DNA from: a virus
IMG/VR virus record: IMGVR_UViG_3300010885_031189
Coordinates: 34,320 to 98,319 of that record
Reading direction: 5' to 3' (one strand)
Length of the DNA: 64,000 nt
Position 1 is the first letter of the stretch, and each line of letters starts with the position of its first letter. This document shows positions 29,433 to 63,200 of this stretch, piece after piece. The translations under genes were made by a program, and so were the position numbers. Below the pieces are notes generated by a model that saw only the letters and a program-made list of their open reading frames with translations, was not told where the DNA came from and ran no database searches.

Positions 29433-29945
29433 ATGAGTGGATCAAAGAGTAAGAACAAAGGCAATTCGTGGGAACGCACTGTTGCCAAATTTCTATCTGA
29501 TTTGTATTCCGCTCCGTTTATTAGAACTCCCCATAGTGGAGCATTCATTGGAGGCATGAACTCAATAAGAAAGCAATCATTGAGTGAAAGCCAAATCAAG
29601 AATTTCAAGGGAGACATTATACCCCCTGAAACTTGGAAAAAGTTTAACTGTGAAGCAAAGTCGTATGCTGACTTTCCGTTTCATCAGTTATATCAAACAA
29701 ATGTACCTATCCTAGAAAAATGGATTGAGCAAGTACTTGAAGTTGCTGATGAAGGCGATTTCAATGTAATTATCATGAAGTTCAACCGAAAAGGTAGTTA
29801 TGTTGCAACACAATTGACACCAAGTCTAATCACAAACTCAAACTTCTTCACATATAAATCATTAAATCATGGAGTCTGGCTCATACAAGATTTTGAATCT
29901 TTTTGGACCGCCAACTCTGCCAATATAAAAACCCTTTGCGAATAA
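29433..29945 (+). CDS. Holliday junction resolvase (Hjc-like PD-(D/E)xK)
   Basis: SKNKGNSWER...RTPHSGA...GDII...EAK. Confidence 0.75.
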   Translation: MSGSKSKNKGNSWERTVAKFLSDLYSAPFIRTPHSGAFIGGMNSIRKQSLSESQIKNFKGDIIPPETWKKFNCEAKSYADFPFHQLYQTNVPILEKWIEQVLEVADEGDFNVIIMKFNRKGSYVATQLTPSLITNSNFFTYKSLNHGVWLIQDFESFWTANSANIKTLCE

Positions 29946-29974
29946 AATAGCCACCAAGGCACGATAACATAGCA

Positions 29975-30330
29975 GTTCTGTTTGATCGGAGTACTTCGAT
30001 CCCCATTGAGGATATGTGAGATACCATATTCAGACTTGGGTACTGCACGATAGGTACCAACGTAAGGTACTAAATGATATAGGCTCTGTTAAAAACCACA
30101 TCCTATGCACATGGCAAGTTAGCTGACTATAGCTTGTTAGATGTCCCGTCATAAACGAATCTAGAGTAGGGAGTACAGGATGACCGCTTCCGCATGCTTT
30201 TGTAACAAGGCACAATCTCTTTTAGTCAGTGTGTAGAAAACACTCAGATGAAAACTGTTTTCCCTCAATTTGGCCTGCCCGGGCCGAATTGTGCTCTACA
30301 TCTAGATGAAGGGGTACTTAAAGAGCAGTC
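29975..30330 (+). ncRNA. Candidate large structured non-coding RNA (family unassigned)
   Basis: No credible ORF; at least seven stems with G-U pairs that read on the + strand; 8-nt pseudoknot pairing 30122-30129 with 30223-30230. Confidence 0.55.
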
Positions 30331-30396
30331 CTTAATAGACAGTAATTAAAATGAATATTCTTTTTACTGTCCTAGAGATTAGGGTTTTAAAGAAAA

Positions 30397-30458
30397 TTGA
30401 TGAGTGAGAGAAGAGCGAAGCGAAGCGAAACGAATCAATAGACTAACGCAGTTAGTCT
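30397..30458 (+). other. ssDNA-type hairpin cluster (tandem G.A stem with GCGAAGC, plus GCA-triloop hairpin); candidate origin or priming signal
   Basis: TTGAT-GA-GT...GCGAAGCGAAGC...AC-GA-ATCAA and AGACTAAC-GCA-GTTAGTCT. Confidence 0.45.
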
Positions 30459-30519
30459 TTATGAATAAACTCACTGTTCTCCAATGAGTTATCCGGTGAT
30501 ACAAATGACATACTACGGC

Positions 30520-30741
30520 TTAGAAAAATGGGAGTCCCGAATTTTTTGTTGTTTCAAGATTTTCTTTAATGATATTACCGATCATTTCTCTTTCTTGGTT
30601 ACTCATCATCATAGCTTCGTTATAAGTGATACCGCCCCTCATATACCAGCATAATCGGAGTGCTTCTTCCTTTAAGGCTTTTGCTTGACTGTCATAACTT
30701 TTTAAGAAAGCCACAACTGATTCCTCATCGTGTAAAGTCAA
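30520..30741 (-). CDS. Tail/baseplate assembly chaperone C-terminal extension (probably made by -1 frameshift)
   Basis: LCWYMRGGITYNEAMMMSNQEREM resembles chaperone GT tails; TTG start without a well-spaced SD; -1 frame to the upstream gene. Confidence 0.6.
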   Translation of the reverse strand: MTLHDEESVVAFLKSYDSQAKALKEEALRLCWYMRGGITYNEAMMMSNQEREMIGNIIKENLETTKNSGLPFF

Positions 30742-31586
30742 AAGCCTTTGCCGAAAAAACTTGCGTAGTCAAAAGTAAGTTCCATGCTGTAAGTCTTTTT
30801 GCATTCAATACAACCAAGATTCAACGGCTTTAATTTAGTTTGTAAGTTTAGTTCTGTTAATTTATCCTGTACTTGTTTTACAACTTTAGATTCAGCTTCT
30901 TTGTAAAATTCTTTAATGTGATCAACATTAGTTACTCTGTCACCATTTTCAAATTCAATATATGCAGTACTATTAGCACATACGCCAGCAGCAAGATCAA
31001 CTAACTTTGTCATTCCTTCTGTCAGCCTAGATGCTCTGTCACCTGGTTCCATCTCAGTCTGACTGATAACATATCGTAGTTTTTCTTCTTCAAATGATAT
31101 TAAATTAGTCTGATTAACAGAAAAATAATGTTGTGGTTTTGTTTTTATTTTTAAGTTTTTATATGAGATAAGATCGTCATAAGACGGACACTTTATTTCT
31201 CCTAATGGAGCACTTAAATCAATTTCATGCGTATTTGTCTCATTGCAATATCCGCATTTACTATCAAAGCTCATGCTATTTCCATAAGTAGCGATTCGTA
31301 TTGCTATTAATATAGCATCAACATCAACACTTGGCATTTCCCATGCATTTTTGATACTAGGGCAACAGCTTTGTATTACATCAACTACACCTTGTCCATT
31401 TAGTAATCCATCCGGAGTCCTAAGCACTATCTCGTCCCTGGTAGTCATCGGGAAAATTGGAATTTCACCAGTTGCAGGTAACTCTAATGCATTTTCTCCC
31501 CACCAATTGCCTTTACTTGGCAAACTTAGATAAATTGCAGGTTGTCTAAAATAACCGAACAATGGGTTTTTTTGATTGTTTTCCAT
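30738..31586 (-). CDS. Baseplate hub/tail assembly chaperone, gp26-like
   Basis: LPSKG...PMTTRDEI...DVDAILIAIRIATYG...CGYC and CIEC zinc pairs. Confidence 0.75.
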   Translation of the reverse strand: MENNQKNPLFGYFRQPAIYLSLPSKGNWWGENALELPATGEIPIFPMTTRDEIVLRTPDGLLNGQGVVDVIQSCCPSIKNAWEMPSVDVDAILIAIRIATYGNSMSFDSKCGYCNETNTHEIDLSAPLGEIKCPSYDDLISYKNLKIKTKPQHYFSVNQTNLISFEEEKLRYVISQTEMEPGDRASRLTEGMTKLVDLAAGVCANSTAYIEFENGDRVTNVDHIKEFYKEAESKVVKQVQDKLTELNLQTKLKPLNLGCIECKKTYSMELTFDYASFFGKGF

Positions 31587-60240: not shown

Positions 60241-60245
60241 CATAT

Positions 60246-63200
60246 ATGATTAGGTATCTACGACAGCCTGCAGGCTTAATTAATGTTTCTACTGCAAGCA
60301 ACATAACCTCAACAGTACTTGGTACTACATTAACGGTAACTAATCAAACTCCTAGTATATCTACTACAACTGGTGCATTGTTAGTAGTCGGTGGACTAGG
60401 AGTAGCCGGTAACATATATGCCACTAATATAAATGGTACAATAACAAAATCTAATCAGCCAAACATAACTCAGCTTGGTGTCTTAACTGCAGTAAGTGCT
60501 GTAAATTTAACAGTAACTGGCAATTTTGTTATGTCTGGTACTGCTACATATGCTAGTAGCCAAAATTTGGTTGTCAATGATACTATTATATCTTTACACA
60601 CTGGACCTGGATTTGCACCATTAACGGTTGATGACGGTAACGATATTGGTATAGTTATTCATCATTATAAATCAGCCGAGGGGAATAAACAATCCTTTTT
60701 AGGATGGGATAATCTAACTGGTCATTTAAAATATTTGACTCAAACCACTAGTACAAATGGAGTACTAACTGGAACTCCTGGTACAATTGAAGCTGGATCA
60801 TTAATAGTATCAGGAGAGGTAGCTACCGGGTCTGTATACAGTAATAGTTATTTTTATGCCAATGGAACACCTTATTATAACACAGGACCAATCGGTCCTC
60901 AAGGTGATACCGGTGCTACTGGCCCTGATGGTCAATACGGACCAATGGGGGAGATGGGGTTCACAGGATCCACTGGAGCATTAGGATCTACTGGTGCTAC
61001 TGGTATAGGAACTAGAGGATCTACTGGTGCTACTGGTATAGGAACTAGAGGCGGAGATGGGGCAAGTGGTGCTACAGGTGCCACAGGACTGACTGGTACT
61101 AGGGGACAAGATGGAACAGATGGTTCCACTGGTTTAACTGGCCCCAGGGGCATCAATGGAATTGATGGAGCTACTGGATTAGCTGGTACTGCAGGTACAG
61201 ATGGCGCAAGTGGTGCTACAGGTGCCACAGGACTGACTGGTCTTAGTGGACAGGATGGAACAGATGGTTCCACTGGTTTAACTGGCCCCAGGGGCATCAA
61301 TGGAATTGATGGAGCTACTGGATTAGCTGGTACTGCAGGTACAGATGGTGCAAGTGGTGCTACTGGCGCTACAGGACTGACTGGTACTAGGGGACAAGAT
61401 GGAACAGATGGTTCTACTGGTTTAACTGGACCCAGGGGCATCAATGGAATTGATGGAGCTACTGGATTAGCTGGTACTGCAGGTACAGATGGTGCAAGTG
61501 GTGCTACTGGCGCTACAGGATTGACTGGTCCGGTGGGTCCTATTGGAGAAAGTGGAGCTACTGGTTTAACTGGAACTGCAGGTAGAAATGGTGCTAGTGG
61601 TGCTACCGGAACTACTGGTTTAACTGGACCGACCGGACCTGTAGGTGATATTGGAGCTACTGGTTTAACTGGAACTGCAGGCAGAAATGGTGCTAGTGGT
61701 GCTACTGGCGCTACTGGTTTAACTGGACCGGTAGGTCCAACTGGTGACAATGGAGCTACCGGACTTACAGGTAATGCTGGTAATAATGGAGCAAGTGGAG
61801 CTACTGGCGCTACTGGTTTAATTGGCCCATCTGGACCTATAGGACCTATTGGTTCTACTGGATCACTTGGTGCTACCGGTATTCCTGGAACTCCAGGTGG
61901 TGCTACTGGTTTACCAGGGGCTACCGGTCTCATTGGATCAACAGGAGCTATTGGATCAACAGGGTCTACTGGAGTAAGAGGTGCAACCGGCTCAACTGGT
62001 GTAACTGGTGTAACTGGAAATATTGGAGCTACTGGATCAATTGGAGTAACAGGTTCAACTGGTATTCAAGGTAATATCGGTTCTACTGGTTTACAAGGCA
62101 ATATTGGTGCTACAGGAAGTGGTGCTACTGGTGCTACTGGAATATTCTCGGGTACAATTACTCAGCAACTCATAACATCAAATACAATATCATCATCAAA
62201 TACTACATCAGGTGCATTGATTGTAGCGGGCGGTGCTGGAGTAGCTGGAAATGTATATGTAGGTGGTTCAATTGTAGGCGATACATTTGGAACTCATACC
62301 GGAACAGTAGTTGGTAATGTATTTGGTAGACTCATTGGAAATGTCACTGCAATAAATATTACTGGTAGATTACTTGGTAATGTTGTTGGAGATGTTGTTG
62401 GTAGTGTTGTTGGTAATACTACTGGAACTCATACTGGGCCAGTAGTAGCATCTACCTTAATTGCATCACAAGCAACAATCGGTTTATTAAATACAACAGG
62501 ACCAACAAATATAGGTGGTTCATTAAGTATAGTTGGTGATCTACTAGTTACCGGTAACATTGCATATGTAAATGTTATTGATCTTGTAGTCAAAGATCCT
62601 TTAATATACTTAGGGAACTCTAATCCAACAGATATTATTGATTCAGGCATAGTATCCTCATTTACTGAAATAATACCTTCAACTGACCAATTTTCTGCAT
62701 GGCATTTCAATGGTACTAATAATGCTTTGACTATACCAGACAGTACTTTAACTGATTTAGGTAGTGGTAATTTTACAATAGAAGCATGGATTAATCTTGA
62801 TACTACAACAGGATATAGAAGAGTATTTTCAAAACAAAATACTGCAGGTGCTGGTGCTAGAGGAAATTATGTAGTTAGAATATCCCCTACCACAAATTTT
62901 GTATATTTTGAAATTAATGTTGTTAAAATAATAGAAAGTACAACATCATTAAGTATAAACACTTGGTATCATTTTGCAATTGTTAGATCAGCATCTACTG
63001 TTAAATTATATATAAATGGTATTTTAGATGCAACTGCTAGTTATGTTGGAATTCCCACTGGGATCAATGCACTTGCTTGTATTGGTGCTTATACTAGTCC
63101 ATTTAGTGAATGGTTTGCTGGATATATTTCAAATCTAAGATTTACTAAGGGAACTGCAGTATATACTGGGAACTTTACTCCATCTACTACCAGATTAAGT

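Follow-up and report, generated by a model that had tools for sequence, protein, structure and literature searches.

A Putative Pseudoknotted RNA with a Lineage-Specific Repeated Word Beside Nuclease and Recombination Genes of T4-like Jumbo Phages

Whether the 574-nt stretch behind a small nuclease gene of a T4-like phage, in which not one open reading frame (ORF) of at least 40 aa is found on the + strand, holds a large structured RNA, and what such an RNA might do, is the question raised by this locus. The window (i.e., the whole stretch of 64,000 nt that was analyzed) belongs to a 98-kb IMG/VR record of a T4-like phage with a CheckV completeness estimate of 28%, and the cultured phages nearest by Rad50 are the jumbo phages PA5oct (51% identity) and Atu_ph07 (46%); the genome that carries the RNA is that of a T4-like jumbo phage.

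The locus and its relatives

The original prediction placed the RNA in the only long gene-free gap of this DNA, between a resolvase gene and a chaperone gene, and parts of this setting have to be corrected. The upstream neighbor is only resolvase-like, because its product is a PDDEXK protein here (Pfam PF24608 at 2.2e-24; phrog_244), and in most relatives the slot is taken by a SegE-type GIY-YIG protein of 142–158 aa that has a 123-residue catalytic domain and no other domain. The supposed chaperone gene is, by Pfam (PF12322 at 3.9e-12) and PHROG (phrog_150), a baseplate-hub gene instead. Three further gaps of 378–691 nt each at 60.2–63.1 kb (60241–60931, 61934–62428, and 62711–63088) contain no ORF of at least 70 aa, so that the RNA gap is not the sole long one in the window; neither a tRNA nor an Rfam family was found in these three.

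By using the flanking nuclease protein as the query, 42 related loci were obtained, in 12 of which the ~360 nt after the stop codon are 71–79% identical to the window, with clear compensatory changes. The flanking protein of those relatives is 68–72% identical, i.e., the RNA region is conserved about as well as the adjoining protein gene, and the original prediction, which would have fallen without conservation in relatives, stands on this point. A 21-nt degenerate core pattern from the most conserved hairpin matches at least 120 contigs in IMG/VR, and nearly all of those listed are full-length homologues according to nhmmer; nhmmer matches were obtained at at least 135 loci, mostly over the full length, and begin at model position 124 in some members with a diverged 5′ domain. 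Judged by these sequence matches, the RNA is common to more than 100 giant T4-like phages, all uncultivated. G001, a complete phage genome of 347 kb and the only one scanned in full, has a single copy at 195.3 kb and encodes 27 tRNAs. Beside this 27-tRNA cluster, ARAGORN calls a permuted tmRNA candidate (G001:C1:110821-111310) that remains unverified. In a 302-kb record, a second, strongly diverged copy of the RNA was observed (L311:1242-1850, or G002:C1 at ~165.7–166.3 kb) that follows a 176-aa ORF without a Pfam family and lacks the P9 hairpin.

A blastn comparison of the window copy and of a consensus-like copy with 50,697 phage genomes gave no match, nhmmer found no RNA homologue in the syntenic regions of PA5oct and Atu_ph07, and a covariance model run over both whole genomes returned only chance-level scores of 17–22 bits. 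The four published ncRNAs of PA5oct sit elsewhere in its genome (PMC7318152). Between its RusA-like resolvase gene and its baseplate-hub gene, PA5oct has ~2 kb (L165:8055-9983; 75.7–77.6 kb) with tiny annotated ORFs only and no detectable homologue of the RNA, a stretch that may hold an unrelated or very diverged element. When 185,579 bacterial genomes were searched with the pattern, 119 of the 120 matches listed were due to chance, mostly in high-GC DNA, and a single one was real, namely in a 148-kb phage-like contig (L273/L307, G005:C3) binned with a Haliscomenobacter MAG; another contig of this MAG (183 kb; L310, G005:C1) carries the RNA in its usual phage context. These two contigs provide either a hint of the host or a case of mis-binning, and hence a weak lead.

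Among 114 loci, the same-strand ORF directly upstream encodes a GIY-YIG protein in 60 cases, a PDDEXK protein in 23, and some other protein in 19, about a dozen of which have the nuclease gene one gene further upstream; no such ORF is seen in the remaining 12, where the contig end cuts the upstream side. The RNA begins 0–60 nt past the nuclease stop codon on the same strand at most loci. At one locus (L038), the RNA and the nuclease gene are separated by an extra gene, and at another (L042), as well as in the complete genome G003, the RNA is divergent from the nuclease gene; moreover, L042 has a consensus sigma-70-type promoter (TTGACA-17-TATTAT) ~240 nt upstream of the RNA. The divergent layout and this promoter imply that the RNA can be its own transcription unit. 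Downstream, the convergent arrangement is seen again in relatives, with either a convergent 72-aa ORF and the baseplate hub or DUF6614 proteins, so the constant neighbor is the convergent baseplate module, with the RNA at the convergent border before the hub genes. Against PADLOC, the neighboring proteins match homing-endonuclease models only, with no toxin or defence family. The link between nuclease and RNA may be plain synteny, given that two unrelated nuclease families occupy the slot and the same word (described below) occurs with both.

Table 1. Features of the RNA locus and adjoining genes (positions within the window).
Feature	Position	Strand	Remarks
Mre11-like phosphoesterase	26513-27529		gene order upstream of RNA
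Rad50-like ATPase	27529-29295		gene order upstream of RNA
Small nuclease gene, 170 aa	29433-29945	+	PDDEXK_15 / RusA-like PHROG; context, outside RNA
Conserved core of the structured RNA, ~365 nt	29948-30312	+	blastn and nhmmer conservation; alignments; covariation
P0, 5′ hairpin (GCC/GGC)	29950-29960	+	carries AGGCA word; weak in wide family, 56% of cells paired
5′ domain	29972-30046	+	most variable; compensatory changes in each helix
P1	29972-76/30042-46	+	encloses P2, P3, P3a
P2	29984-30001	+	5′ domain
P3 (CCCA/TGGG)	30002-05/30037-40	+	covariation
P3a	30010-31	+	5′ domain
Central domain	30047-30149	+	P4 encloses P5, joiner, P6, P7
P4	30047-49/30147-49	+	closes central domain
P5 (GGTACC/GGTACT hairpin)	30053-71	+	covariation
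Joiner CUAAAUGAU	between P5 and P6	+	conserved
P6	30080-30105	+	almost perfectly conserved; 99% paired, 3-4 pair types per position
P7	30107-44	+	both-side changes in 8/8 pairs
Pseudoknot, 5′ strand (P7 loop)	30122-30129	+	covaries with 30223-30230
3′ domain junction	30163-30220	+	P8 encloses P9, P10
P8	30163-66/30217-20	+	new helix, found by mutual information
P9 hairpin	30169-91	+	near-invariant; 100% paired, two covarying pairs
P10 hairpin	30194-30213	+	variable; up to 5 pair types
Pseudoknot, 3′ strand	30223-30230	+	own-partner specificity
X1 (CUC + 7-nt AGAUGAA at 30246-52)	30243-30252	+	direct repeat
P11 hairpin	30266-30291	+	between X1 and X2; one pair G-C 24, C-G 14, U-A 8
X2 (UCU + AGAUGAA at 30304-10)	30301-30310	+	3′ edge of conserved core
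A/T-rich variable spacer ending in A-run	30313-30395	+	in all family members, 25-65 nt
Tandem G.A hairpin around 2-bp mini-hairpin	30396-30439	+	module in all members
Perfect 8-bp hairpin, 3-nt loop, then UUUAU	30440-30458	+	position and form conserved (7-8 bp in members)
73-aa ORF	30520-30741	-	convergent neighbor, context only
Baseplate-hub gene, T4 gp26-like	30738-31586	-	context only

Fold, strand, and known RNA classes

On the alignment of the 12 relatives with 71–79% identity, RNAalifold yields 84 pairs, 31 of them with double changes. In a test alignment of 51 members, made with MAFFT, not fitted to the structure, and containing no two sequences of 85% identity or more, 76.8% of the cells are paired (63.6% in shuffles), double compensatory changes occur in 66 of the 84 pairs, and the covariation score reaches 0.343, as compared with 0.143 after shuffling (0 of 500 shuffles attain the observed value); sliding the 3′ partners by 1–3 columns lowers the score to 0.07–0.11. 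The folding energy, by which the prediction could also have been refuted, gives a mixed answer: the window copy alone folds no better than its shuffles (+ strand, z = −1.08; − strand, z = +0.53; neither significant), whereas all of 12 family members have negative z values (mean −2.0), and 10 of them fold more stably as the + strand than as its complement. The comparison of relatives counts for more than the fold of one sequence, and the RNA is therefore judged to be real.

Several G-U or U-G pairs on the + strand are invariant in 51 of 51 sequences, which bears out the earlier remark on G-U pairs; each would be a C-A mismatch on the other strand, and the RNA is hence read from the + strand. 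The region is not coding, as it has no + strand ORF of at least 40 aa and only short stop-free stretches on that strand (median 41 aa).

From the alignments, about 12 helices are predicted to form three multi-helix domains, the central and 3′ domains being joined by the pseudoknot (Table 1). Covariation in relatives, whose absence would likewise have told against the prediction, is strong, and it extends to most of the stems originally drawn: GATCGGA/TTCGATC (29984–30001), which is present as proposed, TAGG/CCTA (30080–30105), GGCAAGTTA/TAGCTTGTT (30113–30138), TGCTTT/AAGGCA (30194–30213), and the hairpin CAATTTGGCC/GGCCGAATTG (30266–30291; 10 bp) all covary, as does GATATG/CATATT (30010–30031), where relatives have GUGUGUG/CACCCGC. 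Two of the drawn stems had to be given up: in place of TTGGGTAC/GTACCAA, covariation favors CCCA/TGGG together with the GGTACC/GGTACT hairpin, and TGTAGA/TCTACA has no family-wide specificity. The closing pair of the newly found P8 is A-U in 57 sequences, U-A in 31, and G-C in 4. The proposed long-range pseudoknot between GCTGACTA (30122–30129) and TAGTCAGT (30223–30230) is confirmed by covariation: the mean complementary run is 7.5 to the own partner and 4.8 to the partners of other sequences, and the variants are many (e.g., GCUAACUA/UAGUUAGU and AUUUAU/AUAAAU).

The 5′ leader contains the word (U/A)AGGCA(C/U)A, which occurs once in the window (29957–29962), up to 7–8 times in L042 (at 2740–2905 on the − strand), and also in the leaders of L134, L068, and L051; such words could be protein binding sites.

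Beyond the core, the stems of the tandem-G.A hairpin are perfectly Watson-Crick, and its mini-stem covaries (GC/GC, AC/GU, and AU/AU); in the window copy, the hairpin is expanded to overlapping GCGAA repeats. The covariation of the inner 2-bp stem argues for a function beyond simple termination; the hairpin probably forms the 3′ tail of the transcript and, jointly with the A-run, terminates the convergent genes. The perfect hairpin that follows is a likely + strand terminator, which a simple terminator scan did not score. The 3′ hairpins are seen mainly as back-to-back terminators of the convergent units, although conservation of the G.A motif on the + strand points to their being part of the RNA's 3′ tail as well. 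The RNA thus measures about 365 nt in its core and about 510 nt with this tail; in the absence of transcript data, its ends, processing, and expression are unproven.

The search for known classes was negative. A cmscan run against Rfam 15 (4227 models, including GOLLD, ROOL, HEARO, OLE, raiA, RNase P, tmRNA, 6S, group I/II introns, and small ribozymes) gave no match in the whole window at gathering scores, only three chance-level matches (E 0.5–8) within 29800–30800 up to E 10, and none in seven diverse members at E up to 1; ARAGORN found no tRNA or tmRNA in the window. Being conserved, covarying, and without an Rfam match, the RNA fits the original suggestion of a large phage ncRNA, possibly of a new class, and it is judged here to be a new class. 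No description of it was found in Rfam or in the searched literature, where 2026 preprints about non-coding elements deal with other systems. A 2023 catalogue drawn from IMG/VR (PMC10690425) comprises more than 10,000 candidate structured RNAs without names; its text does not describe this RNA, which may nevertheless be among the unnamed entries.

Several classes were considered and rejected individually. For a group I intron, the upstream ORFs keep their own stop codon and align over the full length in relatives, no P4-P6 domain lies between the two pseudoknot strands, the 5′ one of which is the P7 (30107–44) loop, and a group I P7-like pairing, AUCUAGA/UCUAGAU, is incompatible with the covarying P8 and, in much of the family, would contain a U.U mismatch. 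For tmRNA, the candidate called in the complete genome lies at 110.8 kb, far from the RNA. No RNase P model matched up to E 10, and the consensus lacks the CR-I and CR-V motifs that form P4 in RNase P RNA. A retron, DRT, or other reverse transcriptase template RNA was rejected since PF00078 is absent from five RNA-carrying records, two of which are complete genomes (347 and 328 kb), with the positive controls being detected. Finally, a type III antitoxin RNA would have tandem whole units, whereas only 7–10 nt are repeated here.

The twin word and what may read it

Toward the 3′ end of the core, a purine-rich word of 7–9 nt stands twice, at X1 and X2; in the window, its 7 nt follow ACUC at X1 and AUCU at X2. 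The two copies are identical within each genome, and the word itself changes between lineages, with more than 25 variants across the family (among them AGAUGAU, AGAUAAU, GGAUAAUG, AGAUAAAG, AGAUCAAG, GGAUGAG, and ACGAAAU). The copies are still identical in the most divergent members, whose words are AACAAAA, GAAUGAU, GUAUGAUGC, GUCGGAA, AUAGCAG, and AUGAAGAG. Across 48 aligned sequences, X1 and X2 agree at the three variable positions of the word in 98–100% of cases (A-A 31 and G-G 17; G-G 23 and A-A 23; U-U 35 and A-A 11). Of 94 covariance-model matches, 92 have a direct repeat of 7 nt or more at the X1/X2 spacing, and the other two have one of 6 nt. What covaries between X1 and X2 is, hence, identity and not complementarity. 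The copies lie ~58 nt apart (50–64 nt), with P11 between them, and the sequence ahead of the word is also repeated (AUGAC, then 5–10 nt, then CUC or UCU). At one locus (L089), the base before the word is altered in both copies as well, so that the repeat is better written as CU(C) plus word. In G002, the diverged second copy of the RNA has retained the X1-hairpin-X2 module, and its word is a separate one, GCAUGAA.

A partner for the word was not found. No complement of it, with G-U allowed, occurs within 600 nt; just past X2, scattered T-rich matches (31 versus 11 in the control) have no fixed place and include no complement. Neither the window nor the complete genome G001 is enriched in a k-mer or motif that could be a partner, and a comparison of two related contigs, G000 (98 kb) and G004 (199 kb), for sites that covary with the word returned only X1 and X2 themselves. 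The stretches on either side of X1 and just ahead of X2 pair no more specifically with their own partners than with those of other sequences, and the predicted accessibility of X1 (0.46) and X2 (0.45) is not raised over the average (0.40).

That an RNA gene with the described fold exists is regarded as very probable even without transcript data, and a stable structured ncRNA gene combined with a twin-word model is, as a whole, considered the best explanation, with somewhat more belief than doubt. In this model, the conserved fold would be a scaffold whose working parts include the two copies of the lineage-specific word; because the copies remain identical as the word changes between lineages, both would be read by the same partner. 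Both words may base-pair with a single complementary nucleic acid, present in two copies or visiting twice, or else the same sequence-specific enzyme may recognize both of them; the RNA would thereby act in trans and present a bivalent pairing or recognition word, possibly serving the adjoining recombination and nuclease module. This mechanism can only be offered tentatively and is itself doubtful. A more specific version, a bivalent guide whose two words bring two copies of one DNA or RNA together for the adjoining small structure-specific nuclease (GIY-YIG or PDDEXK) and Mre11/Rad50, is unlikely on present evidence; if true, jumbo phages would possess a device without any known counterpart, in which an RNA directs recombination, processing, or the firing of origins. 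With modest confidence, a bivalent guide or sponge is ranked above the cleavage and pre-primer versions that follow.

X1 and X2 might instead be equivalent cleavage sites, cut either autocatalytically or by a single endoribonuclease with sequence specificity, to release the ~58-nt P11 unit as the active product, e.g., as a decoy or pseudo-antitoxin like the ToxI units of type III toxin-antitoxin systems. Such twin processing would account for identical words on both sides of one hairpin unit, at a spacing that stays within 50–64 nt, for the repetition of the pre-word sequence, and for the retention of just the X1-hairpin-X2 module in the second G002 copy; furthermore, known ToxN-type cleavage motifs are purine- and A-rich, as the words are. 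However, no self-cleaving ribozyme family matches up to E 10, recognition by a protein explains poorly why identity extends to all 7–9 positions, the 300-nt conserved scaffold upstream would be superfluous, and the neighboring proteins include no toxin or defence family, and this reading is rated as rather unlikely.

Another possibility is a pre-primer in the manner of ColE1 RNA II. As the word in the RNA equals the coding strand, it is complementary to the template, and X1 could pair with the template DNA at X2 to set up a persistent R-loop in the A/T-rich spacer, with the hairpins past the spacer acting on the displaced strand. Identity, instead of complementarity, would thereby be explained without a third sequence, and in every member X2 is indeed followed by an A/T-rich spacer and then by perfect hairpins with GCGAA-type mini-hairpins; the locus is in a recombination/replication block beside baseplate genes, a placement similar to that of T4 ori(uvsY), and the RNA is single-copy in the genome that was checked. 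Nevertheless, the cumulative GC skew of the complete 347-kb genome has no turn at the locus, terminators of convergent operons, standing back to back, are the simpler reading of the A-run and hairpins, the known R-loop origins of T4 need no structured RNA, and the spacer is short (25–65 nt). The pre-primer is an unlikely reading.

Still less support remains for a cis-acting 3′ UTR element of the nuclease/recombination operon, without a trans role, that would shield the 3′ end of the mRNA or limit how far transcription runs on into the antisense of late baseplate genes. The usual layout, with the RNA starting close behind the nuclease stop on the same strand and ending at convergent terminators, is what such an element would have; the two loci that are divergent from the nuclease gene (one with its own promoter) and the locus with an intervening gene do not conform to it, and a stabilizer would need far less than 365 nt folded into a structure with invariant loops and a pseudoknot, which makes a mere 3′ UTR very unlikely. 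It is scarcely credible, and largely refuted, that the RNA belongs to a known class from which it has diverged very far, be it RNase P RNA, tmRNA, or a group I intron whose homing endonuclease would be the upstream nuclease. In favor of this are the GIY-YIG gene directly upstream, the long-range pseudoknot, and hairpins reminiscent of P7.1/P7.2 of group IA introns. Against it stand the absence of any RF00028, RNase P, tmRNA, or other Rfam match up to E 10, the lack of a downstream exon before a convergent gene 60–200 nt away, a pseudoknot 5′ strand that lies in a hairpin loop and not upstream of a P4-P6 domain, and the failure of ARAGORN to find a tmRNA here when an RNA-carrying genome has a separate candidate elsewhere.

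Significance and place among known systems

Large, intricate RNAs of unknown function are rare, and those that have been solved (e.g., RNase P, group I/II introns, tmRNA, the HEARO/omega RNAs, and the ROOL and GOLLD cages) have opened new biochemistry. Environmental jumbo phages carry the present family in abundance, always at a set place beside recombination genes, and its twin word, kept identical while changing, provides an experimental handle and predicts a specific, searchable partner. Moreover, it indicates that the intergenic DNA of giant phages still hides RNA classes that are missing from Rfam and from the cultured phage genomes searched.

The group I introns of T4-like phages share with this locus a GIY-YIG gene adjoining a pseudoknotted RNA of a few hundred nucleotides; here, however, there are no exons and no Rfam match, the helix order is different, and the nuclease has a catalytic domain only. 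ToxI, CptI, and the pseudo-ToxI of phages likewise have directly repeated, A-rich recognition words at the borders of a small structured unit, and mimics of this kind are known from phages. Those RNAs consist of whole 36–45-nt tandem repeats beside a toxin gene, whereas a single unit with a 7–10-nt repeat is found here, without a toxin gene nearby and preceded by a conserved 300-nt scaffold.

ColE1 RNA II is a structured pre-primer in which an upstream segment equals a downstream segment of the coding strand and can pair with the template DNA, after which hairpin signals follow. By analogy, the likeness may be said to lie in a length of several hundred nucleotides, a repeated segment, and hairpins thereafter; the present locus differs in having no evidence of an origin, no antisense RNA like RNA I, and an unrelated sequence and fold.

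GOLLD and ROOL, large ornate ncRNAs often carried by phages or prophages, resemble this RNA in being large, multi-domain, pseudoknotted, phage-borne, without a known biochemical function, and found by the comparison of metagenomes. Neither model matches it (RF01998 and RF03087), and a twin identical word has, to our knowledge, not been described for either of them. In contrast to GOLLD and ROOL, this RNA is smaller (~365 nt) and resides in lytic-type T4-like jumbo phages, not near tRNA clusters but at a fixed syntenic site.
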